Assembly: GCA_033722075.1 (NCBI GenBank) | Contig: JAWVZU010000001.1 | Location: forward strand, 129-64,128 | DNA from: Lysobacterales bacterium | GTDB taxonomy: Bacteria; Pseudomonadota; Gammaproteobacteria; Xanthomonadales; SZUA-38 | Direction: 5' to 3' | DNA length: 64,000 nucleotides | Part shown: piece by piece, positions 22,513 to 39,669 of the stretch | Numbering within the stretch: position 1 is the first letter of the stretch | Layout of the letters: every line of letters begins with the position of its first letter | The notes under the pieces: generated by a model | What the model was told of the DNA's origin: nothing | The model's database searches: none | Seen by the model: the letters and a program-made list of their open reading frames with translations, nothing else | Made by a program: the position numbers and the translations under genes

Positions 22513-23817
22513 CTAGCGGGTAAAGACGGCGATCGACTCGACATGCCCGGTGTGGGGGAACATGTCCATGACACCGGCTTCCAGGAGCGTGAAACCATGG
22601 GTACGGACCAGTTCGCCGGCGTCCCGCGCGAGGGTGCCGGGGTGGCAGGAAACATAGACCACGCGTTCCGCGCCGGTGTCGGCAATCGCCTGCAGCGCCG
22701 CCGCCGCCCCGCTCCTGGGCGGATCCAGCAGGACCCGGTCGAAGTCGCCGAAGGCATGGTCCTCGGTCAGGTCGGCCACCTGGAACCGGGCGTTCTCGAT
22801 GCCATTGCGGGCCGCGTTGTCGCGGGCCAGCCCGACGAGTTCATCGTCCCCCTCGATCCCGAGCACGCGAGCCGCATGCTTCGCGACCGGCAGAGTGAAA
22901 TTGCCCAGCCCGCAGAACAGGTCGAGGACCGCTGACTCGTCAGACAAGGCGAGCTTGTCTATCGCCAGGTCGACCATCGCCGAGTTGAGCGACGCGTTCA
23001 CCTGAACGAAGTTGGTTGCCGTGAAGCGCAGATCGATTCCCGGCGGAACCTGCGTCGTCAACTCGGGCAGGGTGCCGGTCAGGGGCTCCAGGGAATCGGG
23101 TCCGCCGGGCTGCAGCACGAAGCGAAGACCGGTCCGCTCTTCGAAGCACCGCAAGCGCTCACGGTCCGCCTCACCCAGCGGTTGGAGATGACGCAGGACC
23201 AGGACCGTCTCCCGGTCGCCGGCGGCAATCTCGATCTGGGGAATCTCCCGTTTCGCGTCCAGCTTGTCCAACATCGCACCCAGTTCGGCGATGCGCAGCC
23301 CGACTTGCGGAACCAGCACATGGCACTCCTGGCTGTCGGCCACGAAGCGGCCCTGCTTTTCACGGAACCCGACCAGGACCCGGCCCTTCTTTTCGACGAA
23401 CTTGACGGAAAGCCGGGCGCGGCGCCGGTAGCCCCACGAGCCGGCGGTCAGGTCCGGCAGTACGTGCTCGGGTTCGACGTCGCCGATGCGCCGCAGATTC
23501 TCGAGCAACGTGTTGCGCTTGTGCCGGATCTGGGCAACCGGATCGGCATGCTGCAGCGAGCAGCCTCCGCAGACCCCGGCATGCGGGCAGCGTGGGACGA
23601 CGCGGTACGGTGACGGCTCGAGTACTTCCTCCACCGTGCCCCAGTCGAAGTCCCGGCGACGTCCGCGATATACAAAACGGACACGCTCGCCCGGCAACGC
23701 GCCATCGATGAATACCGCTTTGCCGTCGACCCGGGCCACGCCGCGACCGTCGTGACTCAGATCGTCGACGACGGCCTCGACTGGATCGGCCGGAAGCCGC
23801 TTCTTCCTGCGCCCCAC
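22513..23817 (-). CDS. rlmD: 23S rRNA (uracil1939-C5)-methyltransferase
   Basis: 434 aa. TRAM-like N-terminus, Cys cluster CPHAGVCGGCSLQH, a SAM fold (LDLFCGLGNFTLP), and C-terminal MFPHTGHVE. Confidence 0.9.
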   Translation of the reverse strand: MGRRKKRLPADPVEAVVDDLSHDGRGVARVDGKAVFIDGALPGERVRFVYRGRRRDFDWGTVEEVLEPSPYRVVPRCPHAGVCGGCSLQHADPVAQIRHKRNTLLENLRRIGDVEPEHVLPDLTAGSWGYRRRARLSVKFVEKKGRVLVGFREKQGRFVADSQECHVLVPQVGLRIAELGAMLDKLDAKREIPQIEIAAGDRETVLVLRHLQPLGEADRERLRCFEERTGLRFVLQPGGPDSLEPLTGTLPELTTQVPPGIDLRFTATNFVQVNASLNSAMVDLAIDKLALSDESAVLDLFCGLGNFTLPVAKHAARVLGIEGDDELVGLARDNAARNGIENARFQVADLTEDHAFGDFDRVLLDPPRSGAAAALQAIADTGAERVVYVSCHPGTLARDAGELVRTHGFTLLEAGVMDMFPHTGHVESIAVFTR

Positions 23818-23839
23818 GCGCGTACGACCGAATCAGTCC

Positions 23840-24430
23840 CTATTTCTGGACCCAGGCACCACTGCTGTTCTGGTAATACCAGCCGGAACGGGCATTGGCG
23901 ATCCAGCGGCTGGCGAAGGTGCTGCGGATCTGGTCTTCCCACTCCGGATGGCCGTTGGCCACCGCGATCTCGCGATAGACGGCACGACGATCGCTATTCT
24001 CTTCCGTAACCGCCGCCTTGAGCTGGTTTCGTTCCGCCAGGGGCACCGCACTCAGATCTCGGATCTCCACCATCGCATCATTGGTGAGGCCGACGGCACC
24101 GCTGTTGAAATAGGTGCGCAGGGTGTTCTGGAAACGTTGCTCCATGCGCTGCTGGATCGAACGGATCTGTGGCGTATTGATATCGATGTTCACGTTTTGC
24201 GCATGAGCCGCCGGGAACAACAGGTCCAGCGGATTGAGGCGCTGAATCCAGTGGCTTGCCTGGGGCCGTGCGGCATTGTCCTCGGCCGCAGCTGCATCTT
24301 CAGGGCCAATCACGTTCTCGATGAAGCGGTCGGCGGCCTCCTCGGCTGCGGCTTCCGGGAAATACACGTTGATGGTCACACAGGCGACCAGCGCGGTCAG
24401 TACGGAAAAGGTCAATACGGTTCGGAGCAT
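23840..24430 (-). CDS. YdbL-like (DUF1318) protein with a lipobox and an ~85-aa N-terminal extension
   Basis: Start re-picked at MLRTVLTFSVLTALVAC. The C-terminal half (GAVGLTNDAMVEIRD ... NSDRRAVYREIAVANG ... GWYYQNSSGAWVQK) looks like DUF1318/YdbL. The N-terminal half begins CVTINVYFPEAAAEEAAD. Confidence 0.7.
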   Translation of the reverse strand: MLRTVLTFSVLTALVACVTINVYFPEAAAEEAADRFIENVIGPEDAAAAEDNAARPQASHWIQRLNPLDLLFPAAHAQNVNIDINTPQIRSIQQRMEQRFQNTLRTYFNSGAVGLTNDAMVEIRDLSAVPLAERNQLKAAVTEENSDRRAVYREIAVANGHPEWEDQIRSTFASRWIANARSGWYYQNSSGAWVQK

Positions 24431-24552
24431 CTTCACGGCAGAATCTCCACAAAATAGGCTGGATAGATCATAGCTTGGGGAGGTGACTGTAACCTGAACG
24501 GCGGCGCAGCGCGACCATTGCCAACCCGCCCCCGCAGGCCGCAACATCCAGG

Positions 24553-26583
24553 CTAGTTGAAGGTCGGCGATCCGGCTTCCGTCGCCGCTTTCACGCGCCG
24601 GATCAGCTGCTGAAAATCCACCTCGCGGGAATACCCGATCACGTCGATCCGCGGGATACCCGAGCCTTCGACGATGTAATAGCCCCCATCGGGCGCCGGG
24701 CGAACACCGGCCATGGAGCACACATTGTTGCGCAACCGGCAGGCGATCCCCAGCCGCTCGTAGCCGAAATCCTCGAAAAAGCGCAGAAAGGTGGAGGACA
24801 GCACCGCCGTCGGACCGCCACCGATCGACGTCAGGTTGTCGACTGCGCGCTGGCTGATGCGGTGGGTGGAGCGGTCGTTTTCGGGCGTCTTGAGCGTCAT
24901 GTCGAAGGCCACCGGCTGCCAGTCCAGCAGACGCAGGTTGCGCAGACCGCCCTCGACCCGCCCACGGATTTCACCGAAGGAAAATGCACCGGTCATCTGC
25001 CGCAGATCCAGGTTGGTCAGGATCAGGTCGCCGGCCAGCGTGGGCAGCACGCCGAAGAGTCGTTCCAGGCGGAGTTTTTCGAAGCGTACGGTGCCGTCGA
25101 AGACAGCAAGCTCAATCGCACCGCCGACCTCGACGATCTCGTCGCGCAGGCGGACCCGGGGAATCTCACCGGACAGGGTCCCGTTCAACGGCGGCCATTC
25201 CAGCGCCTCGGTCACCGGGCGCAGAGAGATCGGCTCGATGTCGGCCTCGAAGTCCAGGGTCATTTCGGCGCTGCCGTAGTCACTGAAAGCCAACGTTCGG
25301 ATCGTCGCAGCGCCATCGAAGATTCCCAGACGCAGCGGTTGCAGCAGCTGGAACTCGTTGGCGGCCAGGAAGAAGCGCGCTTCGCCCGGCGCGATTTCCA
25401 CCTGATAGATACCGGCGCGATCCCAGGCGAGGGCCGAGTCCGCGGAATCGCCTTCGGCACTGTAGTCCACCAGGCCATCGAGTGCTTCGAAAGCAAAACG
25501 CCCAGCACTGTCACGCACGTCGACCGAGCGAATATCGAGTGTCGCGTGCGCCAGTTCGGCGTCGGCCAACTCCATGCGTCCCCGCACCTTGCCGGCCAGG
25601 TCGAACCGACCGAGGCCGAGGGCCTGCACCAGATTGGCCAGATAGCGATCGTACACCTCCGGGAAAAGCAGGTGATCGAGTTCGACGGTCCAACGACCGG
25701 CAGCCAGGGACGACAGGTTGCCTTCGCCGGATAGGGAAAGGGAGAGCAACTCGCCATCGGTCAGCTCGGCCGACTCCACGGCCAGCACCTCCCCGGCCAG
25801 GTTGCCGGCCAGCTGGAGCCGGGGTCGGGCCTGGGCGAAATTCAGGTACAGGCTCCCGAAGAGTGCTTCCCCGCCGCTCGGCGCCAGGTCCACTTCGAAG
25901 GTGACAGCCTTGTCACCGATTTCACCGCTCGCCGAGAGGGTCAACCCCAGTTCGGCGCCGGCAACCGTCCCATCCGCGTTGTCGAAGCCAAGACCGGTCA
26001 GGGTCATTTCTGCAGTTGCGCTCGTGGTTTCAGATGATTCGGGCCGACGGATCGTGCCGTGTCCGCTGAGAGTTCCGCCATGGAGCGAATAGCCGTCAAG
26101 CAGGGGCGCAGCGAGCGACTCTACGGCCAGGTCGGAAAGCGTGTAGTCACCGGACAGCCCATCCTCGTCCAGGCTCGCACTGAAACTGACCTCCCCGCCG
26201 AAGAGCCCGCTCTGTCCCGACAGGCTGAGACGCTCTTCCTCAAACTCGTAGGTCCATCGGACCGTACCCTCCGTAGCGCCCCACGAAGCGTTGAACCGCA
26301 GCGTTCCCTCGCATCCCACCCGTTCTTCATCGAGGCGAAAGCGGGTGCACGCAAGAACCGGCTCACCAAAAACCCTTTCGCCTACTACGAGTTCCGCGGC
26401 GGTGGCCCGCGCACTGGTCGTTTCCGGGTTGAGGGACAGGTTGACTTCGACAGCCTTGCCGACGCCGGGCAGCTTCACCTCGGCTGCCGTGATCTCCAGA
26501 ACACCACCGGCATGGACCGGTTGCAGTATAGTCGTCAGACCCAGCAACCAGGCGGCACCCGCCGACGGCAATCGACATTTCAT
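24553..26583 (-). CDS. ydbH: YdbH-like AsmA-family intermembrane lipid-transport protein
   Basis: 676 aa with a signal/anchor MKCRLPSAGAAWLLGLTTIL. A long beta-rich repetitive body is followed by C-terminal STHRISQRAVDNLTSIGGG ... FGYERLGIACRLRNNVCSMAG, typical of the YdbH C-terminus. Confidence 0.8.
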   Translation of the reverse strand: MKCRLPSAGAAWLLGLTTILQPVHAGGVLEITAAEVKLPGVGKAVEVNLSLNPETTSARATAAELVVGERVFGEPVLACTRFRLDEERVGCEGTLRFNASWGATEGTVRWTYEFEEERLSLSGQSGLFGGEVSFSASLDEDGLSGDYTLSDLAVESLAAPLLDGYSLHGGTLSGHGTIRRPESSETTSATAEMTLTGLGFDNADGTVAGAELGLTLSASGEIGDKAVTFEVDLAPSGGEALFGSLYLNFAQARPRLQLAGNLAGEVLAVESAELTDGELLSLSLSGEGNLSSLAAGRWTVELDHLLFPEVYDRYLANLVQALGLGRFDLAGKVRGRMELADAELAHATLDIRSVDVRDSAGRFAFEALDGLVDYSAEGDSADSALAWDRAGIYQVEIAPGEARFFLAANEFQLLQPLRLGIFDGAATIRTLAFSDYGSAEMTLDFEADIEPISLRPVTEALEWPPLNGTLSGEIPRVRLRDEIVEVGGAIELAVFDGTVRFEKLRLERLFGVLPTLAGDLILTNLDLRQMTGAFSFGEIRGRVEGGLRNLRLLDWQPVAFDMTLKTPENDRSTHRISQRAVDNLTSIGGGPTAVLSSTFLRFFEDFGYERLGIACRLRNNVCSMAGVRPAPDGGYYIVEGSGIPRIDVIGYSREVDFQQLIRRVKAATEAGSPTFN

Positions 26584-27304
26584 GGCCTACCGCATCCTCA
26601 TTGCCGACGACAACCGGATCAACCGCGAATTCCTTGTTGGAGTACTGGCCGGCGAAGAGTATCAGATCGAGCAGGCGATGGAGGGCAGCGCGGCGATCGA
26701 GCTCTGCCGCAGGAACCGCTTCGACCTGGTGCTCATGGACATCCGGATGCCCGGTGTCGATGGCATCGAGGCCACCCGGGCGATCCGCAGCCTGCCCGGA
26801 CTGCAGGATCTGCCGATCGTCGCCTTGACTGCCGACGTCGCGCTTCAGCGGGATGCCATCAAAGACGAAGCCTTCGCAGCCACGCTGGTAAAACCCGTCT
26901 CCCGTCGCGAACTCCTCGAGACGCTCAACCGGCTCCTCGGCGCCACGCCTGCCGGAATCGAACTCCAGGAGAACCCGATCGCCATGGACGCCGCCCTGGC
27001 CGCCGCCGGCGGAAACAGGGAACTGGTGGGCCGACTGACCGCCATGCTGAGAAAAGAGTTGGACGATTTCGAACCTAAAATCTCCGCTGCGATCGATCGC
27101 GCGGATTGGCCGGCCGCCCGCGAACTGGTGCACAAATTGCGTGCGTCCGCGGGCTATTGCGGCGCCCGACCTCTCGCCACCGCCGCCGGGACGCTGGAGG
27201 AAGCTCTCGACAAGGGCGAAGGGGGGACGATCCGCGACCTCCAGGCACGATTGAAACGCGAGATGGCAATCCTGCGCACCCATCTCGACGAATCCACGGG
27301 CTGA
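26582..27304 (+). CDS. Response-regulator receiver fused to an Hpt phosphotransfer domain
   Basis: Start re-picked at MAYRILIADDN. It has the receiver motif DLVLMDIRMPGVDG and the Hpt motif HKLRASAGYCGA. No kinase gene is in the window. Confidence 0.85.
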   Translation: MAYRILIADDNRINREFLVGVLAGEEYQIEQAMEGSAAIELCRRNRFDLVLMDIRMPGVDGIEATRAIRSLPGLQDLPIVALTADVALQRDAIKDEAFAATLVKPVSRRELLETLNRLLGATPAGIELQENPIAMDAALAAAGGNRELVGRLTAMLRKELDDFEPKISAAIDRADWPAARELVHKLRASAGYCGARPLATAAGTLEEALDKGEGGTIRDLQARLKREMAILRTHLDESTG

Positions 27305-27310
27305 TCCAGC

Positions 27311-28192
27311 ATGGGCTTGGGTGAGTGGCTGTCGCTGGGCAGCGCCGTGGTCTGGGCGATCGCCGTGGTCATGTTCAAGCGCAGCGGCGAGACCTTCTCT
27401 CCGACCGCGCTGAACCTGCTGAAGAACATCATCGCGGCCGTCTTGCTGGCTGCGACCCTGCCCATCGTCTACGGCCTGACGTTTCCGACATTTTCGGCAA
27501 CCGAATGGTGGATCATGGTGGCCAGCGGCCTGCTCGGCATCGCCGCAGCCGACAATCTGTATTTTGCCGCCCTGCGGAGATTGGGTGCGAGCCGGACCGG
27601 CATCGCGAGCAGCCTGTTCAGCCCGTCGGTCATCGTCCTGTCCTACTTTCTTCTCGGCGAGCGTCTCGTGGCCCAGCAGATCGCCGGTTTTCTGCTGGTG
27701 GTCGCCGCGGTGATCCTGGTGAGCTACCGCAAGGATCGAAAGGACATCGCTGCCGAGGAACTGCGCCAGGGTACGCTGCTGGCGGTCACCGCCGTATTCC
27801 TGATGGCGCTCGGGATCGTGATCGTCAAACCGGTCCTGGAGTTGCATCCCTTCCTCTGGATCGTCGAGATCCGGGTCGTGGTCGGGATCATCGGCATCGT
27901 CCTGGTCGGCTATGCGCGGGATCGACTGCACGGTCTCCGCCTGCAGCTGCGACTGAAGCACAACTGGTGGCTTGCCGGCGGCGCCAGCTTCTTCGGCAGC
28001 TACCTGGCCATGATCCTGTGGCTTGGCGGCTACAAGTACACCCAGGCATCGGTCGCTTCCGTACTCAACGAAACCGCCGCGATCTTCATCGTTGTCCTGG
28101 CCTGGATCTTCCTCGGCGAGTCGCTGAACGCACGCAAGACCTGCGGCGTCCTGCTGAGCTTTGCCGGCGTCCTGCTGATGGTCAGCGCCTGA
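27311..28192 (+). CDS. EamA/DMT-superfamily transporter
   Basis: 293 aa with about 10 TM segments in two EamA-like halves. Confidence 0.8.
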   Translation: MGLGEWLSLGSAVVWAIAVVMFKRSGETFSPTALNLLKNIIAAVLLAATLPIVYGLTFPTFSATEWWIMVASGLLGIAAADNLYFAALRRLGASRTGIASSLFSPSVIVLSYFLLGERLVAQQIAGFLLVVAAVILVSYRKDRKDIAAEELRQGTLLAVTAVFLMALGIVIVKPVLELHPFLWIVEIRVVVGIIGIVLVGYARDRLHGLRLQLRLKHNWWLAGGASFFGSYLAMILWLGGYKYTQASVASVLNETAAIFIVVLAWIFLGESLNARKTCGVLLSFAGVLLMVSA

Positions 28193-29174
28193 TGTAGCCG
28201 CTTTTCACAAACCACTCGAAGGTCCGAGCAAGTATTTGCTCGAGGCCGAGCGCCGCTTCGAAACCCAACTCGTCCCTGGCCTTGGCCCCGGAAAGGTGCT
28301 GCCCCCCGGCCATGACCGCGAGGGCCGTGTCGTCGAGCTTGGGCGGCCTGCCCCCGAGCTTGTGGCGAAGGGCCTGGAAACGAGCCAGCCAGCGAGCGAC
28401 CGGCAAGGGGACTTTCCGCGGCGGCGGGATTTCCGCAAGCCGTGCGACGGCGGCAACGACCCGGCTCATGGTGGTGTTCTCGCCGGTCAGAAGATAGCGC
28501 TCACCCACGCGGCCCCGCGCCAGCACGGCTAGCAGACCGCGCCCCGCATCACCCGCGTAAATCACGTTGCGGCTGCCGTCCACATAGGCGGGAATCGTCC
28601 GGTTGGCCACTTCCGTGATGATCCGCCCCGTTGTCGGGCCGAAGTCGTATTCGCCGAAGGTCATCGCCGGGATCCCGATCATGACCGGCAGGCCGTCCGC
28701 CGCTGCTTCCCGCGCCAGGCGGTCCATGATCCACTTGGCCTGGATGTAACCATTGCGCTGTGGCGGCGGACCGTCGCCCCAATCACTGTCTTCGCGGCCT
28801 AGGGACCCATCGGCTGGCCGGCGCAGGACGATCGAGCCGCCGACATACACGATGCGCCCGACCCGGGCCTTTGCACAGGCTTCGAGAAAGCCCGTCATCT
28901 CCTTTCTGGCCCGATCACGATGCGTCGACCAGGGCGCGGCATCGCGTGGATAGTAGGCGGCGGCGTGAACCACCGCATCGGCACCGGACAACGCTTCGAC
29001 CAGCGAAGCCGGATCATCCAGATCACCGACAGCCGCTTCGAATTCGAGATCGGCGATCCGGTCCAGCTTCGAACCGGCCCGATGGACGACCCGCAAATCA
29101 TGCCCTTCACCGAGCGCAGCCAGGACGACGTGGTGTCCCAACATGCCCGTTGCGCCAATAACCGCGAGTCTCAT
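28182..29174 (-). CDS. NAD-dependent epimerase/dehydratase (extended SDR) family protein
   Basis: Start re-picked at MRLAVIGATGMLGHHV (Rossmann GxxGxxG). The length of 330 aa fits. Confidence 0.8.
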   Translation of the reverse strand: MRLAVIGATGMLGHHVVLAALGEGHDLRVVHRAGSKLDRIADLEFEAAVGDLDDPASLVEALSGADAVVHAAAYYPRDAAPWSTHRDRARKEMTGFLEACAKARVGRIVYVGGSIVLRRPADGSLGREDSDWGDGPPPQRNGYIQAKWIMDRLAREAAADGLPVMIGIPAMTFGEYDFGPTTGRIITEVANRTIPAYVDGSRNVIYAGDAGRGLLAVLARGRVGERYLLTGENTTMSRVVAAVARLAEIPPPRKVPLPVARWLARFQALRHKLGGRPPKLDDTALAVMAGGQHLSGAKARDELGFEAALGLEQILARTFEWFVKSGYIRR

Positions 29175-29182
29175 GCGTCTCC

Positions 29183-30310
29183 CTATTTCTTGCTGACCAC
29201 GACCTTGTTCCGCCCACCCCGCTTGGCACTGTAGAGCGCCTTGTCGGCCGCTTCGATCACCGCATCCGGCGGCTGCCCACTGCTGTTGTCGGCCAGACCG
29301 ATGCTGACGGTCACGTTGAGGCTGGGGACTTTTTCCCGGTACCGGTCCTTCTTGAGGGGTTTGTGATCGGGCCGGATCGGGGCGCGGAAGGCCATGGGCG
29401 GCACTTCCACGGCCGCCCGGACCTCCTCGCACACATCAGCCGCGTTGCGGGTTCTTTCAGCGCCGAGAAACAACAGGCAGAACTCCTCGCCGCCATAGCG
29501 GAATGCCTTGAACCGTCCGACTCGCCTGACGCGCGATGCCACCATGCGCAGCACCTGGTCTCCGAAATCGTGTCCGAAGCGATCGTTGATCCGCTTGAAA
29601 TGGTCGATGTCCAGCATCGCAATGGCGAATTGGCGCGGCATGGAAGACAGGGTCAGATCCAGGGAGCGTCGATTTGGCAGTCCCGTCAGGGCATCGACGA
29701 ACGCCATCCGGTGAGTGGTATAGATCACGCCCAGAAAGAGCACCCCGGCGGCCCCCGCGACGACTACGGTCAGCATGCTCGGCCGCATGACGCCGACCAG
29801 CAGCACGGTGGCCATCAGGGACATCGCCAGCTCGGTCGACCGATCCGACATCTGCCAGCGCAGGAAGAAGGAGATCGATGCCAGAACCGTCACCAGGGGT
29901 TCGACCGGAATGATCCAGCTCGCGAACCGCTCCGGGACCCAGCGCTGGAGAAGGGTATTGATGCCGGCTGCCCCGTCCCAGACGCCGGGTTCGAACCACA
30001 GGGGCAAAACCAGCTCCAGGGTCAGCAGAAAAACGACCGCCGCCGTCACCAGCGAAGGCAGACGGGCCATCGGCAACCAGGAGAGCAGCAACAGGTTCCA
30101 GGGCAACCAGGCCAACGCGGTTGCGCCGAGATCGTGGCTGAGCGGCCAACCAGCGGCCTTCGCCACCTCCCGCGCCGCCAGGCCGGCCACCAGGAAGATC
30201 AGCCAGATGAAGCCGTAGGCTGCCCGGAACCGCTTGAACCACGCAGCGTAAATCAGGCCGAAGGCAAGAAAGAACAGGAGTCCCAAGCCATTTTCCAGCC
30301 CGATACTCAC
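29183..30310 (-). CDS. Membrane-anchored diguanylate cyclase (GGDEF)
   Basis: 375 aa. An N-terminal half of about six TM segments is followed by DIDHFKRINDRFGHDFGD and RYGGEEF (GGEEF active site). Confidence 0.9.
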   Translation of the reverse strand: MSIGLENGLGLLFFLAFGLIYAAWFKRFRAAYGFIWLIFLVAGLAAREVAKAAGWPLSHDLGATALAWLPWNLLLLSWLPMARLPSLVTAAVVFLLTLELVLPLWFEPGVWDGAAGINTLLQRWVPERFASWIIPVEPLVTVLASISFFLRWQMSDRSTELAMSLMATVLLVGVMRPSMLTVVVAGAAGVLFLGVIYTTHRMAFVDALTGLPNRRSLDLTLSSMPRQFAIAMLDIDHFKRINDRFGHDFGDQVLRMVASRVRRVGRFKAFRYGGEEFCLLFLGAERTRNAADVCEEVRAAVEVPPMAFRAPIRPDHKPLKKDRYREKVPSLNVTVSIGLADNSSGQPPDAVIEAADKALYSAKRGGRNKVVVSKK

Positions 30311-30349
30311 GCTGTCGCACTCTCCCCAGCTGGCCCCAGGTCGCTATTG

Positions 30350-30364
30350 TGGCAATTTTCCTGC
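30350..30364 (+). promoter_or_regulatory. Sigma-54-type -24/-12 promoter-like box
   Basis: TGGCAAttttcCTGCT. GG is at 30351-30352 and GC at 30363-30364, which is exactly the GG-N10-GC spacing of the TGGCAC-N5-TTGCW consensus. It points away from the GGDEF gene, into a region with no credible CDS. Confidence 0.4.
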
Positions 30365-30463
30365 TGAAATTCCCGCCGGTTCCGGGCCCCGGACTGCCAA
30401 ACGCATCACAGTTGCCGTATTCATTCCCGGGTAGTCTGACAGGTGCATGTGGGGAGCAGAGCT

Positions 30464-30492
30464 GCCGGGTCGTTCGCGGCCCGGCCTTTTTT
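30464..30492 (+). terminator. Intrinsic terminator oriented on the + strand (orphan)
   Basis: gccgggtcg-ttcg-cggcccggc gives a 9-bp GC-rich stem (one G-U pair) with a UUCG tetraloop. It is followed by c + tttttt (30487-30492). On the minus strand there is no U tract after the hairpin. Confidence 0.7.
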
Positions 30493-30520
30493 ATCTTTCC
30501 CTTGACGCGTCAGTCGAAAG

Positions 30521-31921
30521 TCAACGAGCAATCTGATAGCAGGGCTCGTAGACGCTACCGGGCAGCTTCATGCGCTGCTGCTGCACGAACGAAGCCAGTA
30601 GCTGGTCGAGTTTGGAGAGCAACTCCGGATCGCCGTGGATGCGGTACTTCCCATGCTTGGCGATCGCTTCCATCCCCTCGTCTTTCACGTTTCCCGCCAC
30701 GATCCCCGAAAACGCGCGCCGCAGGTCCGCGGCCAGATCGTGGGCATCCGCCTCATGGGTGAGATCGAGCGCCGCCATGTTCTCATGGGTTGGCCGAAAC
30801 GGGATCTGGAAAGCATGTCTGACATGGAGACCCCAGTTGAAGAAGAACGCGTCTTTCGTCTCGATACGGTAGCGCTTGACCTCCTCGACTCCGCTCGCCA
30901 GGGACTGGGCAACGGCCTCCGGATCACCGACGATGATCTGATAGCGAGACTGGGCCTCCTCCCCGAGAGTCGCGCCGATGAATTCATCGATCCGGGAAAA
31001 GTAATCGGCGCTTTCCTTCGGTGCGGTGAAGATCAGCGGCACCGGCACATCCCGATTGGCGGGATCGAGCAGGATGCCGAGCAGGTACAGGATTTCCTCC
31101 GCCGTCCCCACACCGCCGGGAAAGACGATGACTCCGTGGGCAATCCGGACGAACGCCTCGAGACGTTTTTCGATGTCCGGCATGATGACCAGCTGGTTGA
31201 CGATCGGATTGGGCGACTCGGCAGCAATGATGCCGGGCTCTGAAACGCCGATATAGCGGCCTTGCCAGCGACGCTGCTTGTAGTGGGCAATCGTCGCACC
31301 TTTCATCGGTCCCTTCATCGCGCCGGGCCCGCACCCGGTGCAGATATCGAGACCGCGCAGGCCAAGCTGGTAGCCCACGTCCTTGGTGTAGTCGTACTCG
31401 CTGCGGGCAATCGAATGGCCACCCCAGCAGACGATCAGATTGGGGTCTATCCCGGTCTGGAGGATTCCCGCGTGGCGCAGAATCGAGAAGACCGCATCGG
31501 TGATCCCGGCGGGATCGTCGAGTGCGAACTTGCCTTCCCGAATCTGGGTACTGACATAGACGACATCCCGCAGTACGGCGAAGAGCAGTTCGCGGATTCC
31601 CTCGATCAGTTTGCCGTCGACGAACGCCGATGCCGGCGCATTGACCAGCTCCAGCTTGATGCCGCGGTCCTGCTGAACCACGCGAACGTCGAAATCCGAA
31701 TGCTGTGCGAGCATGGCATGCGGGTCATCCTGCAGGGCGCCGGAGTTGACGACCGCAAGACAGCAACGGCGAAACAGGTCGTACAGGCCGCCGTGACCGG
31801 ATTCCTTCAGCCGCGCGACCTCCTGCTGCGACAGGACGTCCATGCCTTCCGTGGGGACGATGCGTGCCACCTTGGGCGCCGACGTATTCTTACCGACCTT
31901 GTTCAACATTCCATTGCTCAT
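30521..31921 (-). CDS. ppnN: Pyrimidine/purine nucleotide 5'-monophosphate nucleosidase (LOG-family, PpnN/YgdH-like)
   Basis: 466 aa. VCWGGHS, GCGPGAMKGP and FPGGVGTAEEILY are LOG/PpnN core motifs. The length matches PpnN. Confidence 0.85.
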   Translation of the reverse strand: MSNGMLNKVGKNTSAPKVARIVPTEGMDVLSQQEVARLKESGHGGLYDLFRRCCLAVVNSGALQDDPHAMLAQHSDFDVRVVQQDRGIKLELVNAPASAFVDGKLIEGIRELLFAVLRDVVYVSTQIREGKFALDDPAGITDAVFSILRHAGILQTGIDPNLIVCWGGHSIARSEYDYTKDVGYQLGLRGLDICTGCGPGAMKGPMKGATIAHYKQRRWQGRYIGVSEPGIIAAESPNPIVNQLVIMPDIEKRLEAFVRIAHGVIVFPGGVGTAEEILYLLGILLDPANRDVPVPLIFTAPKESADYFSRIDEFIGATLGEEAQSRYQIIVGDPEAVAQSLASGVEEVKRYRIETKDAFFFNWGLHVRHAFQIPFRPTHENMAALDLTHEADAHDLAADLRRAFSGIVAGNVKDEGMEAIAKHGKYRIHGDPELLSKLDQLLASFVQQQRMKLPGSVYEPCYQIAR

Positions 31922-33289
31922 TCACAGTCCATCTGGCAGAAACGTGTCCTGCCGTCTTCCCGCCGCCCGCCTGCGCGCCCGGGCAAGGCGCCGATTTCTG
32001 GCGCGCACGAAAAACGTGACCGCGACGGCGATGAGGGCAATCGCCCCCAGCAGATAGGGCAGCCATGCCCGGTCCTGCGACTCTGCCTGCGGTGGCTGAT
32101 CGACCGGCGCATCCAGCCCCGGCCTCAGATCCGGCTCCGCCTGCGAGGCGGTGTCCGCCGGGGTGATTCCCGGCTCGGCGGCGGCCCGGGCCTGATCCGC
32201 CGCCTCTGCCTCGCGCAGTTCCATCAAGCGCTGCAGGTCGCCGATGCGCTGCTCCAGCGTCGCTATGCGCTCTCTGAGATTTTCGTTTTGCTGCCGATAG
32301 GTTTCAATCTCGGTCCGCGCATAGGCGAGGTCCCGGTCGACCGTCTCCTGCTGCGCCGCGAGGGTCAGCGCATCGGCATCCAGCCAGTCCGCAAGGGATT
32401 GGGCGATCTCTTCCGGCCCCGGGGGCGCCCGGAGCCTCACCCTGTCAGCTTCGCTCGCCCGCCCTGGAGCGGTGATCGGTTTTTCCACCGGCGGTGGAAT
32501 CTCCGGCAACCTGGCCAGGTCGTTCTCGTTCCGCGCAAGCTGCTGCGGCACGGTCATCGTGACGCCTGCGAGCAGCCGATTCCGGTTGCCGTTCACAAAT
32601 GCATCCGGGTTGGCATTGAACAGAAGGTCAGCCACCTCATCGAGGGACCGCTCACCGGTATAACGCCGGGAAATCCCGTACAGCGTGTCACCGCGACGGA
32701 CCCGATAGCTGGTTCCCGTCGGCTCCTCGGCCGCGGGTGCGGGCGTCTCTTCGACGGGGGCCGGAAGGGTCGGCATTACATCCGTGCGGGCGGGACGCCG
32801 CGCAACCGGGGGTTCAGGCTCGACCTGGGGCTCCTGTTCGGGCATCTCGATCGCGCTCGGGAAATCCAGCAGGACCGGATAGTGCCGGCTCTGAACACCG
32901 CCCGGCTCTGCCATCACGACCACCAGATCGAGCACCAGGTCCTCGATCGGCAAGCGGCTGCTCATCGCCACCCGCCAGACGCCCTGCTCCAAACGCGGCT
33001 CCGCAAGAATGATCCAGTCGGCGGCCGCCGGTCGCGGCAACTGCAGCCGTCCATAGTCCGTCGCATCGCCGATGCCGAAGGTGTGATCCCGCAGATCCTC
33101 GCCGGGTTCACGACTGACGACCAGGTCAGCAGCAAAAGTTTCACCAAGATAGGAGCGGACATCCAGATCTCCCAGCCGGGCGGCGCTGCCCAAGGCTGGA
33201 AGCAGGAGGACGAGGCTGAGGAAAATGCTACGCAAGATAATGGAAATCGGGGTATTGAGGACTCGCGAAGTGTACCTTAACCCGGACAT
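31922..33289 (-). CDS. Short FimV/HubP-like LysM protein, C-terminally membrane anchored (paralog A)
   Basis: Signal peptide, then LGDLDVRSYLGETFAADLVV (FimV N-terminal motif), HYPVLLDF, LysM YRVRRGDTLYGISRRY, LFNANPDAFVNGNRNRLLAGVTMTVP, a coiled coil, a TM segment and a basic tail ending TFLPDGL. The start is uncertain (33289 or 33328). Confidence 0.8.
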   Translation of the reverse strand: MSGLRYTSRVLNTPISIILRSIFLSLVLLLPALGSAARLGDLDVRSYLGETFAADLVVSREPGEDLRDHTFGIGDATDYGRLQLPRPAAADWIILAEPRLEQGVWRVAMSSRLPIEDLVLDLVVVMAEPGGVQSRHYPVLLDFPSAIEMPEQEPQVEPEPPVARRPARTDVMPTLPAPVEETPAPAAEEPTGTSYRVRRGDTLYGISRRYTGERSLDEVADLLFNANPDAFVNGNRNRLLAGVTMTVPQQLARNENDLARLPEIPPPVEKPITAPGRASEADRVRLRAPPGPEEIAQSLADWLDADALTLAAQQETVDRDLAYARTEIETYRQQNENLRERIATLEQRIGDLQRLMELREAEAADQARAAAEPGITPADTASQAEPDLRPGLDAPVDQPPQAESQDRAWLPYLLGAIALIAVAVTFFVRARNRRLARARRRAAGRRQDTFLPDGL

Positions 33290-33387
33290 TGCACAAGTTG
33301 CGCTTGCCCATCGGCGCAATGCCTGCATGCAGGTCCAAAACAGAATAGAATTAGCTATAAAATACCTGGAACGGGGGACGGTTCAGG

Positions 33388-34662
33388 ATGAATCGGATCA
33401 AAAGCTGCGCGCTGTTGCTGTGCTGCGTCCTGGGGACGGCCAAGGCTACCGGCCTGGGCGAGTTGGAAGTCACCTCCAGCTACGGCGCACCATTCTCGGC
33501 GACCTTGCGAGTCAATATCGACGGTCTGAACCTCGCCCCGCAGGTTCGTGTAGCGGGCTCGGAGGCGTACGATCGGCTGACGCTCGATCGACCACGCATC
33601 GTCGATTCCATCTCTGTTGGCGAACTTCAGCGGGACGGTGCCGGTTGGTATGCCACGCTGGAAGGCGATGCGCCGGTCAAGGAACTGGTCCTCGATCTGG
33701 TGCTGCTTATCGAAGAACCTGGCTCTCGCCAGGCCAGGCACTACCCGGTGCTGCTTGATTTCGGGCCCTCGCCAGCCACCAGCACCGCCGAATCCACCGG
33801 CCGTCAGGCACCGCGCTCGATCGCCGCCTCTCCACGCAGCTCGCGTCCCCCGTCCCGGGACGGAGACGGTACTTACCGCGTTCGCCGCGGCGATACGCTG
33901 TTCGGTATTGCCCGAAGTCTCGGCGGGCAAGGCAGCATGGCTGAATTGGCCGAAGCGATCTTTCAGGCCAACCCGGAAGCCTTCATCCGCGGCGACCGCA
34001 ATCGCCTGAGAGCAGATGTCGACCTGCGCATTCCGGGCTCGGCGGACGTCGCCAGGCCCGGGGAGACGGCACCGGCGCGAGTGGATCCTACCCCCTCGGA
34101 AATTACCGTGGAACGAGTCGAACTGACCGTACCTCCGGAGGTTGCCCAGCTGGAACGATCGCTCGACCAGCTCGCTGCCAGCGAAGACTCGGAACTGGAA
34201 GCCCGGGCCGAGGAAGCTCGCCTTCAGCTCGCTTTCAGCCGTGCGGAACTCGAGACCTATCGCCAGGAAAACGTGGCTCTGAACGAGCAGATCGACATCC
34301 TCGAGCAGCGCCTCGACGACATGCAGGAGCTGCTCGATCTCCGCGATGAGGATGTAGCGGCCGCACTTGAACGCGAGAGCCGGAGTTCGGCGCCGGCAGA
34401 AATGGAACCGCAGCCCGGCCTGGTGACCCCGGAGGCGGCCACCGTACCACCCAGGGATCCGCTCCCGGAGCCCCCGGCCCCCTCGAACGAGTTCGATTCG
34501 AAAAGCGTCATCCTCTATTTCGGTGGCGGCGTCGTGGCGATCATCGGCATGGTGATCCTGTTCTTCTACCTGCGCGAGGACAAGGCGCGAGCCGAGCAAA
34601 GGCGGCGGCTTGCTCGACAGATCGAAGAGGAATCCCGGCTGACGCTTCCCGAGGATCTTTAG
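33388..34662 (+). CDS. Short FimV/HubP-like LysM protein, C-terminally membrane anchored (paralog B)
   Basis: Same architecture as paralog A: LGELEVTSSYGAPFSATLRV, HYPVLLDF, LysM YRVRRGDTLFGIARSLG, IFQANPEAFIRGDRNRLRADVDLRIP, a coiled coil, a TM segment and a tail ending LTLPEDL. Confidence 0.8.
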   Translation: MNRIKSCALLLCCVLGTAKATGLGELEVTSSYGAPFSATLRVNIDGLNLAPQVRVAGSEAYDRLTLDRPRIVDSISVGELQRDGAGWYATLEGDAPVKELVLDLVLLIEEPGSRQARHYPVLLDFGPSPATSTAESTGRQAPRSIAASPRSSRPPSRDGDGTYRVRRGDTLFGIARSLGGQGSMAELAEAIFQANPEAFIRGDRNRLRADVDLRIPGSADVARPGETAPARVDPTPSEITVERVELTVPPEVAQLERSLDQLAASEDSELEARAEEARLQLAFSRAELETYRQENVALNEQIDILEQRLDDMQELLDLRDEDVAAALERESRSSAPAEMEPQPGLVTPEAATVPPRDPLPEPPAPSNEFDSKSVILYFGGGVVAIIGMVILFFYLREDKARAEQRRRLARQIEEESRLTLPEDL

Positions 34663-34780
34663 CCCGACCCTCCCTGTCGACCGCTTGACCGGGCAAACTA
34701 CAAGCCTGCCGCCGGGCATTGGATCGGCGACGGATTTCGGCATAATGCAAGGCCGTCAGCCTGTCCGGAGCCACCGTTTC

Positions 34781-36367
34781 ATGCGCCTACTCGTCTCGTT
34801 TTGCCTGGTCGTAGCTGTTTTCTCCGCCATGGCCGAAATCCCGGAAGCACCTGATCGCGAGCGCGGGGTCGGCCCCTTCGAGCGCATGATCCTGCGCGGT
34901 GGCACCCTGGTCGACGGCACTGGCGCCCCACCCCTGGGCCCGGTCGACATCGTCATCGAAGGTGACACCATCCGGTCGATCCAGTCCGTCGGTTATCCCG
35001 GCGTTCCGATTGCCGAGGACAAGCGGCCCAAGGCGGACGGGAACACGCGGGAGATCGACATCGAGGGCATGTACGTGTTGCCGGGCTTCGTGGACATGCA
35101 CGGACACATGGGCGGAAAGGCCCAGGGCGTCAGCGCCGAATACGTGTTCAAGCTATGGATGGGACACGGCATTACCGCCGTCCGGGACCCGTCCTGCGGG
35201 AACGGGCTGGACTGGTGCCTGAAACATCGCGAGCGGTCCGAGCGCAACGAGATCACGGCGCCGCGGATCTTTGCCTATCCCGCGTTCGGCAGTGGGCGAG
35301 ACGAACCGATCACCAGCGTCGACCAGGCCCGGGACTGGGTTCGCTCGGTGGCCCGCCGCGGCGCGCAGGGCGTGAAGTTTTTCGGTGCGCCGCCGGAGAT
35401 CATGGCTGCCGCGCTGGAAGAGATCCAGCGGCAGGGGCTGCGCTCGGCGATGCACCATGCCCAGCTGGCCGTCACCCGGGTCAACGTGCGGGACACCGCG
35501 CGGATGGGTTTGACCACGATGGAACACTGGTACGGCCTGCCCGAGGCACTGTTCGAGGATCGCACCATCCAGGACTACCCGCCGGACTACAACTACAGCA
35601 ACGAGCAGCATCGGTTTGGCGAGGCGGGCCGGCTGTGGGCCCAGGCCGCCGCGCCCGGTAGCGAGACCTGGAACACGCTGCGCGACGAACTGGTCGAGCT
35701 GGATTTCACGCTCGACCCCACGTTCACCATCTATGAAGCCAGCCGGGACCTGATGCGCGAGCGCACGGCCGACTGGCATCGGGAGTACACGCTGCCGGCC
35801 CTCTGGCAGTTCTTCCAGCCATCGCGCAAGGCGCACGGCTCCTACTGGTTCGACTGGACGACGGCAAACGAGATCGCCTGGCGCGGCAACTTCGAGCGCT
35901 GGATGCGCTTCGTCAATGACTTCAAGAACCATGGCGGGCGAGTCACAACCGGATCGGACTCGGGCTATATCTTCAAGGTCTACGGGTTCGGCTACGTCCG
36001 CGAACTGGAACTGCTCCAGGAGGCCGGCTTCCATCCCCTGGAGGTGATTCGCTCCGCGACGCTCAATGGCGCAGAAGCGCTAGGCGCCTCGGATCACCTC
36101 GGCTCCGTCGAGCCGGGCAAGCATGCGGACCTGGTGGTGGTCGAGGAGAATCCCCTGGCCAATTTCAAGGTCCTCTACGGCAACGGGCATTTTCGACTGA
36201 ACGAGAACAACGAGCCCGTCCGAGCCGGTGGCGTCCGCTATACGATCAAGGACGGCATCGTATTCGATGCCCGTCGCCTGCTCGGTGATGTGCGCGAAAT
36301 GGTGAAGAAGGCCCGCGAGGATTCGGAGTATTGCCTGCCCGTCTCCGACTGCATCGAGGGGCCGTGA
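34781..36367 (+). CDS. Secreted amidohydrolase-family metallohydrolase
   Basis: Start re-picked at MRLLVSFCLVVAVFSAMA (signal peptide). VLPGFVDMHGHMGG is the HxH metal motif, and the C-terminal region GSVEPGKHADLVVV is typical of the amidohydrolase superfamily. Confidence 0.8.
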   Translation: MRLLVSFCLVVAVFSAMAEIPEAPDRERGVGPFERMILRGGTLVDGTGAPPLGPVDIVIEGDTIRSIQSVGYPGVPIAEDKRPKADGNTREIDIEGMYVLPGFVDMHGHMGGKAQGVSAEYVFKLWMGHGITAVRDPSCGNGLDWCLKHRERSERNEITAPRIFAYPAFGSGRDEPITSVDQARDWVRSVARRGAQGVKFFGAPPEIMAAALEEIQRQGLRSAMHHAQLAVTRVNVRDTARMGLTTMEHWYGLPEALFEDRTIQDYPPDYNYSNEQHRFGEAGRLWAQAAAPGSETWNTLRDELVELDFTLDPTFTIYEASRDLMRERTADWHREYTLPALWQFFQPSRKAHGSYWFDWTTANEIAWRGNFERWMRFVNDFKNHGGRVTTGSDSGYIFKVYGFGYVRELELLQEAGFHPLEVIRSATLNGAEALGASDHLGSVEPGKHADLVVVEENPLANFKVLYGNGHFRLNENNEPVRAGGVRYTIKDGIVFDARRLLGDVREMVKKAREDSEYCLPVSDCIEGP

Positions 36368-36488
36368 TTCCGACGGCTATTGCCATTCTTGCTCGATCGG
36401 GCGGCGATGGGGGTTCTGAATCGACGAAGTATTTCGTTTTTGCCGCCGATAGGGGTAGAGTCGGGCGGGAGCCACACGGTCATGCACC

Positions 36489-36842
36489 ATGAGATCAATC
36501 GCATTCGCTTTCGTTGCAACCTTTCTCGTCGGCGCCTGCGCATCCTCGCCTCGCCAGGATGCCGCCACACCCAGCACCGCCCAGCTCACCCCCGCTTCCT
36601 ATTCGACATCGACTGCGACGCCGCAACCGGAAAGCTCTGTCGCCGTTCCGGTCTCCGATGATGATGTCTGCAAGCCCAGAATCATCGATCGGCGCGCTGC
36701 CCTGAAGGACGACTGCCTAAATCGCATCGAACGTTCGCCAACGGCGGGGAAGGGTTATAACGCCATCGGCCGTGAACCGAAGCACCAGCTCAAGAGCATG
36801 TGTGACTACTCGGTCCTGCCCAAGTGTCGACGCAAGTACTGA
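36489..36842 (+). CDS. Small Cys-containing lipoprotein, unknown function
   Basis: MRSIAFAFVATFLVGAC lipobox, a Ser/Thr/Pro-rich linker, then four Cys (CKPR...DDCLNR...SMCDYSVLPKC). Confidence 0.55.
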   Translation: MRSIAFAFVATFLVGACASSPRQDAATPSTAQLTPASYSTSTATPQPESSVAVPVSDDDVCKPRIIDRRAALKDDCLNRIERSPTAGKGYNAIGREPKHQLKSMCDYSVLPKCRRKY

Positions 36843-36910
36843 ACCGGGTGGACGGCAGGGCTTCGCTTCGGCACACTCTCGGCAACAGGCGAGAACACAC
36901 AAGTCTCAAT

Positions 36911-37156
36911 ATGTCGAAAAAGCTGCTCAGTCTTGCGCTGCTTGGCGCATTGCTTGCCGGCTCGGGATGCGCCAGCAAGCAGAACCGGATCTACATTGGC
37001 CAGTGCGCCGTGCCGGGCCACTGGTTCTGCGGCAAGATCTACGACAGCCGCGCCCAATGCAACAACGACCGCAAGAAGCACGATTTCGAGACATCCCTCC
37101 CGGGAACCTGTTACAGCGGCGATCCCCGCGGCCGACCCGACACGCGTACGATGTGA
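36911..37156 (+). CDS. Small Cys-rich lipoprotein, unknown function
   Basis: Start re-picked at MSKKLLSLALLGALLAGSGC (lipobox). The 60-aa mature part contains four further Cys. Confidence 0.55.
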   Translation: MSKKLLSLALLGALLAGSGCASKQNRIYIGQCAVPGHWFCGKIYDSRAQCNNDRKKHDFETSLPGTCYSGDPRGRPDTRTM

Positions 37157-37209
37157 CCTCCCCTGTCCGTCCGGAAAGGCGGACGGTGTAACTACGAAGA
37201 AAAACGTAT

Positions 37210-39669
37210 ATGATTCGGCCGGTTGCCTTGCTGGATTGTGTCATGACTCACCGTTTCGCCTGCCTGTTTGCCGCACTGGTGTCCATGTCTGCGGTCGCCA
37301 CCGATATTCCCCTGGGAAATCTGCCTGCCGACCAGGGCCTGCGAATCGAAGGCCTCGCGCGCAACGACCAGGCGGGTTCGGCTGCTCTCGCCACGGGCGA
37401 CTTCAACGGCGACGGCATCAAGGACCTGGCTTTCAGTGCGACCGGCGTGGACGCGGCAGTCAACGGCAGCACGGCCGCCAACGTCGGCGAGGTGTATGTC
37501 CTGTTCGGCCATCCGACCGCCTTTGAAGATCCGATCGATCTGAACGAGATCATCAACGGAGACGGCAGCCGCGGCTTCGCCGTCCGCGGCGAGTTTCCCG
37601 GCAACGCGATCGGCGCGAACCTCATGGGGGTGGACCTGACCGCCGACGGGATCGACGAGCTCGTGATCAGTTCTCCCCGATCGGGTACGACCGCCGGAAA
37701 CCAGGGCATCGTCTACATCCTCTTCGGCAAGCGCGGGAGTTTCGATCCGGTGTTCCCGCTAGGTCGCCTCCGGACCCAGGACAACAGCGGCACCGGCGAG
37801 GGATTCATCGTGTCCGGCACCCAGCTCAACGGGCAGATCGGCGCATCGCTGGCCGCCCTGGAAGACTTCAACGGCGATGGCATCAGCGACCTGTTGATCG
37901 GCGGATCCCTCATCTCGAATACGAGTTCTACCAACGGCCGCCTGGGCCAGAGCGTGATACTTTTCGGGCGTGACGGCACCGAGAGCTGGCCGGCGACGCT
38001 GCGTACGGTGGACTTCCGCGAGGACCTGCTGGGTGAACTGCTCGGAACCCTGATTACCTCGGCCGGTTCCGAGGAGCAGGGGGGCGACGCCTCGCTGAGT
38101 GCCGGCGATGTCAACGGCGATGGCCTCAGTGACTTCTTTTTCGCGGGTCCGAACGGCGATGGACCCAACGGCGAAGCGGGCGCCGGTTTCGTCGACCTGC
38201 TGGCAGGCCGCTCGGCCTACGGCGGTGACATCGAACTGCGCGTCCGCTCCCAGGCCGGCATTCTGACCCGCTTCTTCGGTGAAGCCGGTGATGGTGCCGG
38301 CACCGATCTCGCCCGACTGGGCGATTTCAACGGCGACGGGCACGAGGATTTTGCGATCAGCGCGCCCTTCGGCGGCGCCGACGAGCGGGGGCGCGTGTAC
38401 ATCCTGTTTGGACGCCCGGTCGGTCAGCCCTGGGGAAGCGACGTAAGACTCATGCAGCTGGTTGACTCGAATGGCGCCGCAGTGATCAGCGGCGGTCCGG
38501 AAGAGCGCATCGGGCAGTCCGTCTCCGCCACCGGCGACGTGGACGGAGACGGTTTCGACGATGTGCTCATAGGCGCCGCCGAAGGCGGCATCGCGGGTCG
38601 CGCCTACCTCGTTTTCGGACGGGCCAGCGAGCGACGGATCGACCTGACCCAGGACTCGGGAGTCACGCGGTTCGAGGGGGCCATGGCGGAAGACTTCGCG
38701 GGCCGCTCGGTGGCTGGACGAGGTGATTTCAATGCCGACGGAAGCCACGACTTCACGATCGGCTCGACGCTGGCGGATGGCGCTGTCGAGAACGCCGGCA
38801 GCCTGCATGTCCTGTTCGGCGCCGGGGAAGATGCGGCACCCCCCATGCAGGGCGAACTGAGCCACGCCCTTTACGACCCGGCTCTTCCCGGCCAGGGCGT
38901 ACTGCTCGAATACGGCCAGCGCAATGGTCAGGGTGGACTCTTCGCCGCCTGGTACACCTTCGAGGCCGGACAACCGATCTGGCTCGTGACCGACCTGCCC
39001 GCGTTCGCCCGCGGTCAACGTTCGCTGGTCGCACCGCTGTTTGTCACCGAAGGCGCTTTCTTCGGAGAAGACTTCAACTCGAACCAGGTCAGCACCGAAG
39101 CCTGGGGCAGCGTCCGGGTAACCCAGACTCGATGCGGCCGGATCCTCTGGGAGTATGAGCGGGCGTCCGACGGCCAGGCCGGCCGTCTTCTCCTTCGACC
39201 GGTACTGGCGGACCTGCTGGGTCTCGATCTTTGCGCCTTGAACCGCGACGAAGACACGGCGACCAACCCTAGACGCCAGGTGGCCGGGACCTTCTGGAAC
39301 CCCGATCGATCCGGCGAAGGCATTCTCCTCGACCTCGAGGACCGGGCGGGTCCACCACAGCTATTCTTCTCCTGGTTCACCTATAATCAGGGACGGCAGG
39401 TCTGGCTCGTCGGCAGCGGTCCGATGGATGTCGTCTCCGGGCGCGCCTCGGCGATCGAACTCTTCGAAGCCGGCGGGGCAGATTTCGGGAACCGGTTCGA
39501 TCCGGGCGAGGTGGCGCTGCGTCGCTGGGGCAGCGTCGACCTGGAGTTCGCCGGCTGCGGCACGGCGGAGCTGAACTATGCGGGCAGTTTTGCCGGGCAG
39601 AACGAGCAGATCGGACGCATAGCCCTCGAGCGGTTCACCGACGGCCTGGCAGATTTCGACTGCAATTGA
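37210..39669 (+). CDS. Secreted FG-GAP (integrin-alpha-like) seven-blade repeat protein with two copies of an unknown C-terminal module
   Basis: 819 aa. There are seven GD(F/V)(N/D)(G/A)DGxxD Ca-binding FG-GAP repeats (aa 62-520). Two ~125-aa repeats follow (aa ~548-676 and ~690-819) with the motifs NP/DPxxxG(Q/E)G, F(A/S)W(Y/F)T(F/Y), WLV, WGSV and paired Cys. The start may be at 37243 (MTHRF). Confidence 0.85.
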   Translation: MIRPVALLDCVMTHRFACLFAALVSMSAVATDIPLGNLPADQGLRIEGLARNDQAGSAALATGDFNGDGIKDLAFSATGVDAAVNGSTAANVGEVYVLFGHPTAFEDPIDLNEIINGDGSRGFAVRGEFPGNAIGANLMGVDLTADGIDELVISSPRSGTTAGNQGIVYILFGKRGSFDPVFPLGRLRTQDNSGTGEGFIVSGTQLNGQIGASLAALEDFNGDGISDLLIGGSLISNTSSTNGRLGQSVILFGRDGTESWPATLRTVDFREDLLGELLGTLITSAGSEEQGGDASLSAGDVNGDGLSDFFFAGPNGDGPNGEAGAGFVDLLAGRSAYGGDIELRVRSQAGILTRFFGEAGDGAGTDLARLGDFNGDGHEDFAISAPFGGADERGRVYILFGRPVGQPWGSDVRLMQLVDSNGAAVISGGPEERIGQSVSATGDVDGDGFDDVLIGAAEGGIAGRAYLVFGRASERRIDLTQDSGVTRFEGAMAEDFAGRSVAGRGDFNADGSHDFTIGSTLADGAVENAGSLHVLFGAGEDAAPPMQGELSHALYDPALPGQGVLLEYGQRNGQGGLFAAWYTFEAGQPIWLVTDLPAFARGQRSLVAPLFVTEGAFFGEDFNSNQVSTEAWGSVRVTQTRCGRILWEYERASDGQAGRLLLRPVLADLLGLDLCALNRDEDTATNPRRQVAGTFWNPDRSGEGILLDLEDRAGPPQLFFSWFTYNQGRQVWLVGSGPMDVVSGRASAIELFEAGGADFGNRFDPGEVALRRWGSVDLEFAGCGTAELNYAGSFAGQNEQIGRIALERFTDGLADFDCN

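Follow-up and report, generated by a model that had tools for sequence, protein, structure and literature searches.

The described sigma-54-dependent small RNAs include Qrr1-5 of Vibrio (LuxO), the enterobacterial GlmY (GlrR), and CrcZ/CrcY (CbrB) and NrsZ (NtrC) of Pseudomonas. The enhancer-binding-protein sites that accompany sigma-54 promoters are usually inverted repeats situated about 80-150 bp upstream, and the GC dinucleotide of the -12 element is indispensable to promoters of this type, with CTGC-type -12 elements known in genuine examples (e.g. nifH). Context for GlmY is given in PMC7073468, and the Xanthomonadales generally carry rpoN (PMC8657755). Bidirectional promoters provide a second point of reference. 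PMC10268837 describes them as having reciprocally paired -11A/-7T positions on the two strands, with divergent transcription starts about 18 bp apart, and bidirectional promoters in bacteria are also treated in PMC12825309.

The locus described here is the spacer between ppnN and a gene encoding a GGDEF-domain protein (a predicted diguanylate cyclase), located near the middle of a 64-kb stretch of DNA that was analysed as a whole (the window). An earlier note had read the + strand of this spacer as a candidate sigma-54-dependent small RNA gene, running from a -24/-12 box to an orphan intrinsic terminator. The orphan terminator stands, and a + strand non-coding transcript is a reasonable proposal, but sigma-54 dependence now appears unlikely, the -12 GC having been lost in L081, the relative that keeps the terminator.

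Both flanking genes are on the minus strand and the spacer between them is 210 nt long (30311-30520; Table 1). The upstream neighbour is ppnN, the public counterpart of which (P0001, from a Xanthomonadales MAG) carries the name PpnN. The downstream neighbour encodes a 375-aa GGDEF protein with a membrane-type N-terminus, and its start is the same as that in the public annotation (P0121, 100% coverage, likewise from a Xanthomonadales MAG).

Table 1. Coordinates of the flanking genes and of the observed and putative features of the ppnN-GGDEF spacer, given as positions in the window.
Feature	Coordinates	Strand	Description
GGDEF-domain protein gene	29183-30310	-	Pfam PF00990, E = 6e-31
Mirror-image -10-like hexamer TATTGT	30345-30350	+	Candidate start signal of the + strand transcript
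Candidate extended -10 TGcCACAAT (sigma-70-type, GGDEF gene)	30346-30354	-	Shares positions with the -24 part of the sigma-54-like box
Sigma-54-like -24/-12 box TGGCAATTTTCCTGCT	30350-30365	+	GG 30351-52, GC 30363-64, 10 nt between
Putative non-coding transcript	30357-30492	+	5' end ~30357 if TATTGT is used, ~30376 if the sigma-54-like box is used; 3' end at the U tract
Conserved block AAATTCnCGCCGGnTCC	30368-30384		Common to the window, L081 and L082
Conserved block TGCCAAAnGCnTCAC	30395-30409		Common to the window and L081 only
Conserved block CATTCCnGGGnAGnCT	about 30423-30438		Common to the window and L081 only
Intrinsic terminator	30464-30492	+	9-pair stem, UUCG loop, C, U6
ppnN (nucleotide 5'-monophosphate nucleosidase)	30521-31921	-	Pfam PpnN_C, DUF4478, Lysine_decarbox

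Upstream of ppnN are two tandem genes of ~465 aa each (31922-33328 and 33355-34743, both on the minus strand), the first encoding a FimV N-terminal domain with a weak LysM match and the second without a Pfam match; the FimV_N pair also flanks ppnN in the relatives L082 (L082:211-3001), L084 and L086. An epimerase ORF (28182-29432) overlaps the 3' end of the GGDEF gene as listed. The 532-aa ORF at 26363-27961 (minus strand), the longest there, is without a Pfam match. It is overlapped by a + strand ORF of 293 aa (27311-28192) whose codon-position GC profile is better, and gene calls between 26.4 and 29.4 kb therefore need care. Two further segments, 45630-46990 (~1.36 kb) and 54990-55887 (~0.9 kb), contain no ORF that passes a crude codon-bias gene call and may be missed genes or non-coding features.

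Searches against Pfam and a check of small ORFs reveal no + strand protein gene that would account for the terminator. Pfam gives no match for the 137-aa ORF at 30349-30762 (+), which reads through the terminator, and the other small ORFs in the spacer are just 20-36 aa long, none of them credible. A small protein was rejected as the product of the spacer, as these short ORFs either cross the terminator or sit on the opposite strand; this agrees with the earlier view that no credible protein is encoded between the box and the terminator. The two ATTCCCG(C/G) repeats noted at the same time are also present (ATTCCCGC at 30369-30376 and ATTCCCGG at 30423-30430).

Comparison with known RNA families does not identify the element. 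There are no matches to Rfam 15 (cmscan) at gathering thresholds anywhere in the window, Qrr, GlmY/GlmZ, CrcZ, NrsZ and the Xanthomonas sX RNAs included, and the region 30200-30650 yields only chance-level matches (E >= 2) at E <= 10, none of them on the + strand element; the element thus matches no family in that collection. ARAGORN finds no tRNA or tmRNA. The fold energy is not unusual relative to shuffled sequences (z = -0.95 for 30376-30493 and -1.5 for 30357-30493), and consensus folding of the window with L081 gives no usable covariation on either strand, with one compensatory pair seen between these two sequences, one of which has a gap.

The terminator is the best-defined element of the spacer, and its coordinates, 9-bp stem, UUCG loop and U6 are exactly those claimed for it at the outset. 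The hairpin reads GCCGGGTCG-TTCG-CGGCCCGGC (30464-30485) and is followed by a C and by T6 at 30487-30492; its stem (GCCGGGUCG / CGGCCCGGC) has eight G-C pairs and one G.U pair. On the + strand it therefore has the GC-rich stem (at least 5-9 bp), the loop of 3-8 nt and the adjacent U tract of an intrinsic terminator. On the minus strand the sequence past the stem is AGCTCTGCTCC and contains no T/U run, which confirms that the U tract is confined to the + strand. The terminator is the top match in a scan of 20001-40000 and so the strongest in 20 kb, and a stricter scan of the whole 64 kb returns just two intergenic sites with a hairpin and a T tract, this one at 30464 (+) and another at 40835 (+), the latter correctly placed behind a + strand gene. 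Canonical terminators of the hairpin-plus-T-tract kind are thus very scarce in this genome; with just two intergenic examples in 64 kb, most genes end without one.

The orientation of the terminator can be set against what lies behind ppnN in more distant relatives. The 200 nt past the ppnN stop codon were scanned for canonical terminators at 78 distant ppnN loci among those listed. Fifty have no canonical terminator, 11 have one on the ppnN strand only, 14 have one that serves both strands, and at three the terminator is confined to the opposite strand, one of these three loci having a clear convergent ORF. The U tract is thus on the ppnN strand at 25 of the 28 listed loci that have a canonical terminator after ppnN. 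A hairpin with its T tract on the opposite strand only would usually point to a convergent transcription unit, and given this orientation and the lack of a protein gene, the locus is most simply interpreted as giving rise to a short non-coding RNA from the + strand.

The spacer has a narrow distribution. Neither blastn nor nhmmer detects anything resembling the spacer in the loci listed, which comprise at least 80 ppnN loci from GTDB species-representative genomes with ppnN at most 68% identical. Closer metagenomic relatives were found by protein search and their contigs compared. The order ppnN-spacer-GGDEF is kept in L081 (ppnN 90% identical at the amino acid level), in which the spacer is 225 nt long including a 55-N scaffold gap, and in L082 (ppnN 79%), in which it is just 137 nt. 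In L084 and L085 (ppnN 70%) a GGDEF homologue begins 28 nt past the ppnN stop codon (L084:4390-4423) in an operon-like arrangement, and L083 and L086 have different neighbours. Orthologues of the GGDEF gene (L087-L089, 50-58% identity) are located in other genomic contexts, and no homologue of the element is present there. As ppnN and the GGDEF gene are separated by 28 nt in L084 and L085, this arrangement looks like the ancestral operon, and the 137-nt spacer of L082 and the 210-225-nt spacers of the window and L081 look like later expansions of it.

The element is missing in L082 and in more distant relatives, and among the matches listed L081 is the single close relative with which it can be compared. 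A metagenome DNA pattern scan with the blocks conserved between the window and L081 gave no match, and the sole match of a second such scan (L090) is an AT-rich, coding, unrelated contig and was rejected as chance. There are no copies of the spacer elsewhere in the window, and an origin from a repeat or mobile element was discarded for want of a second copy there. In L081 the GGDEF gene appears as two separate calls (235 and 201 aa), and homology is interrupted at residue 173/174 (~3240-3373), which is probably an assembly artefact and not a sign of a pseudogene.

Conservation between the window and L081 was judged against the 4-fold degenerate sites of ppnN, which are 57% identical and serve as the neutral reference. 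The 3' arm of the terminator and T6 together are 17/18 identical in L081 (P about 6e-4); the comparison covers these parts of the terminator, with the 5' arm falling inside the 55-N gap (L081 2535-2589). The T6 is wholly kept, an outcome with a chance of ~3% for six sites at the neutral identity. With 17 of 18 positions identical as against 57% at neutral sites, the hairpin and its T tract are constrained in L081; no terminator is present at all in L082. As judged by these sequence comparisons, the terminator is a real, selected and oddly oriented element limited to a very narrow clade, and in the best explanation of the locus it would be a functional intrinsic terminator for + strand transcription. 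An imperfect 26-nt palindrome (CTTTCCCTTGACGC/GCGTCAGTCGAAAG, core GACGCGTC) occupies 30495-30520, between the terminator and the ppnN stop codon, and is not conserved in L081.

The remainder of the spacer is also conserved above the neutral level, with 71% identity from 30311 to the L081 gap (94/132, P about 5e-4) and the same identity within 30366-30442. Three conserved blocks stand out (Table 1), and the first of these is placed where a -35 or activator site of the GGDEF promoter would be. The blocks within 30368-30438 could be DNA sites upstream of the GGDEF gene or RNA sequence, and the conservation of the spacer could come wholly from DNA-level regulation of GGDEF. With 2 mismatches, the sequence TGCCAAACGCATCACA (30395-30410) looks like a CRP/Clp-type site (TGTGA-N6-TCACA). 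It precedes the putative GGDEF start site by ~60 nt and is conserved in L081, where it reads TGCCAAATGCGTCACG. Such a site was rejected as an explanation of the second block, the window containing four sites at 2 mismatches where 16 are expected.

A candidate promoter for the GGDEF gene is found close to the start codon. The minus strand from 30354 to 30346 reads TGCCACAAT, a TGn followed by CACAAT, and lies 35 nt upstream of the GGDEF start codon. The sequence and its distance from the gene are identical in L081, and ATTGT, which the minus strand reads as ACAAT, does not vary among the three syntenic loci (window, L081 and L082); upstream of the GGDEF orthologues there is a TACAAT (L082, L087) or TGGTAGAAT (L088). 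From this pattern we infer that TGcCACAAT is a promoter element of the GGDEF gene. The + strand carries the mirror-image hexamer TATTGT, whose -11A/-7T pair with the -7T/-11A of CACAAT (minus strand, 30351 to 30346), and this geometry is conserved in L081. TATTGT is a weak hexamer with no -35 partner, its predicted start is inside a T run, and a simple sigma-70 scan identifies no + strand promoter in the spacer. A bidirectional sigma-70-type start is favoured because the shared -10 is the only upstream signal that is conserved in L081.

Under the favoured interpretation, + strand transcription would set out from the promoter region of the GGDEF gene, where a sigma-70-type promoter would work in both directions (TATTGT on the + strand, CACAAT on the minus strand). 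A start at TATTGT would produce an RNA of ~135 nt from ~30357, and the overall length would be roughly 115-140 nt. The transcript would be convergent to ppnN and antisense to the ppnN-GGDEF spacer, and the hairpin and U6 would halt + strand transcription about 35 nt before it entered ppnN in the antisense direction. Read-through from ppnN to GGDEF would not be blocked, because the minus strand lacks a U tract. In addition, the RNA might work in cis, as an antisense RNA to the ppnN-GGDEF mRNA, or in trans as a small RNA. The locus is probably best read as specifying a lineage-specific, short, non-coding (antisense) + strand transcript, an ordinary small RNA candidate whose existence, start and function we infer from the anatomy, rarity, orientation and conservation observed for the terminator. 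That such a transcript exists, begins at a start other than sigma-54 and ends at the hairpin and U6 is a proposition to which we give about even chances.

The best-surviving alternative holds that there is no + strand RNA and that the hairpin belongs to the 3' end of the ppnN mRNA, where it would terminate transcription in a non-canonical way, stabilise the message or form a barrier to processing between ppnN and GGDEF. In that case the T run is simply a stretch of A residues that precedes the hairpin in this mRNA. The hairpin begins 35 nt past the ppnN stop codon, which is the usual place for a gene's own terminator, and no convincing + strand promoter is evident; moreover, as 50 of the 78 listed ppnN loci have no canonical terminator, the clade often does without U tracts. 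However, the ppnN strand past the stem (AGCUCUGCUCC) has no U run where the listed relatives with a canonical terminator mostly do (25/28), and T6 is completely retained in L081, with a chance of ~3% at the neutral identity. We regard this alternative as rather unlikely.

In the sigma-54-dependent reading, a small RNA would start at ~30376 from the TGGCAA-N5-CTGCT box, be activated by an enhancer-binding protein and be terminated at 30492. The box is present with the exact GG-N10-GC spacing described for it, although its span is one base longer than first given (30350-30365, not 30350-30364). It has a 5/5 match to TGGCA, is the sole TGGCA-N7-TGCW in the window, is intergenic and precedes by ~100 nt an orphan terminator that faces the right way, and its CTGC-type -12 has the precedent of nifH. 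Set against this, 0.75 such sites are expected in the window and 54 of 100 shuffles contain at least one; the box also has 3 mismatches at the 12 specified positions of the full consensus TGGCACG-N4-TTGCW, and there are 64 sites with up to 3 mismatches to that consensus in the window where 95 are expected. The two halves of the box differ in their conservation. TGGCAA is conserved at 6/6 positions in L081, whereas CTGCT is replaced by AGACC, with 1/5 bases kept and no GC, and this is the most diverged stretch of the spacer. The overlap of the -24 half with what may be the extended -10 of the GGDEF gene, on the opposite strand, would explain why this half is kept and the -12 half is not.

The position of the box reads TGGCAAGTTTCAGACC in L081, with no GC at -12, and ATTGTACCCC in L082, with no GG at -24, so that the -24/-12 dinucleotides are not conserved in either of these relatives that keep the locus; the expectation that the promoter would be conserved where both flanking genes are kept is not borne out. 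No alternative sigma-54 spacing or shifted box is seen in the sequenced part of the L081 spacer. Since the -12 GC is indispensable and is lost in L081, which keeps the terminator, the upkeep of the terminator is independent of the box. Any enhancer site would have to be within the coding sequence of the GGDEF gene; 30150-30345 shows no inverted repeat for an enhancer-binding protein, although the site of the cognate activator could be missed. No GAFTGA motif or RpoN-box peptide is encoded in any frame of the 64-kb window, and the element has no match to Qrr, GlmY/Z, CrcZ or another Rfam family. The box is probably not a functional promoter, and the sigma-54 label most likely reflects a chance match on the -10 region of the neighbouring gene; a sigma-54-dependent small RNA is accordingly improbable.

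A narrower form of this proposal is that the box is a recently gained sigma-54 promoter, specific to the window lineage, of a new ~115-nt Hfq-type small RNA beside the diguanylate cyclase operon, which we consider highly doubtful. Were it true, the new Hfq-type RNA would run divergently from the leader of the diguanylate cyclase operon and be in part antisense to it, and a signal received by an enhancer-binding protein would pass through the RNA to c-di-GMP synthesis (and to ppnN nucleotide metabolism). An isolated -24/-12 match arises about once per 64 kb by chance, and no sigma-54 call should therefore be made without a conserved -12 GC, especially where the match overlaps the -10 of a divergent gene. 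It is very improbable that the extra ~75-110 nt including the terminator are without present function and left over from an insertion or from a + strand gene that has since been lost. Neither L082, with its spacer of 137 nt, nor L084/L085, with 28 nt, has the segment, which is thus a recent arrival in the lineage of the window and L081; but it has no repeat elsewhere in the window and no recognisable coding remnant, and its identity between the window and L081 exceeds that of neutral sites.

If the favoured + strand transcript is real, it would be one more lineage-specific antisense or small RNA beside a diguanylate cyclase gene, in this case in an uncultured member of the Xanthomonadales. The locus would then also illustrate how a spacer that has a promoter of its own and a terminator in the opposite orientation can arise within a co-transcribed gene pair, which is a modest and local point.

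In its proposed plan the spacer resembles the loci of the sigma-54-dependent small RNAs (Qrr, GlmY, CrcZ/CrcY and NrsZ), in having a -24/-12 box, ~100 nt of non-coding sequence and a U-tailed intrinsic terminator in an intergenic location. It differs from them in that there is no match to Rfam in sequence or structure, the box is not conserved and no upstream activator sites were found; furthermore, CrcZ and NrsZ adjoin cbrB and ntrC, whereas there is no adjacent gene for an enhancer-binding protein here. Convergent and bidirectional intrinsic terminators (bioRxiv 10.1101/2022.10.23.513370; TransTermHP survey, PMC1852404) likewise have a GC-rich hairpin after a stop codon that ends opposing transcription. 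However, true bidirectional terminators are flanked by an A tract at one end and a T tract at the other, whereas here the T tract is on the + strand only, and unlike at convergent terminators the convergent partner is not a protein gene.

The bidirectional sigma-70 promoters of Warman et al. 2021, as summarised in PMC10268837 and PMC12825309, are similar in their near-symmetric -10 with paired -11A/-7T. The + strand hexamer here is weak by comparison and without a -35, and a dedicated strong terminator for the non-coding arm is not known as a class-defining feature. The class is also similar in that one direction gives an mRNA, which here would be that of the GGDEF gene, and the other a non-coding RNA, here the putative + strand transcript. 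Although not a member of any Rfam family, the putative RNA would work in the manner of other terminator-bounded intergenic small RNAs or antisense RNAs.
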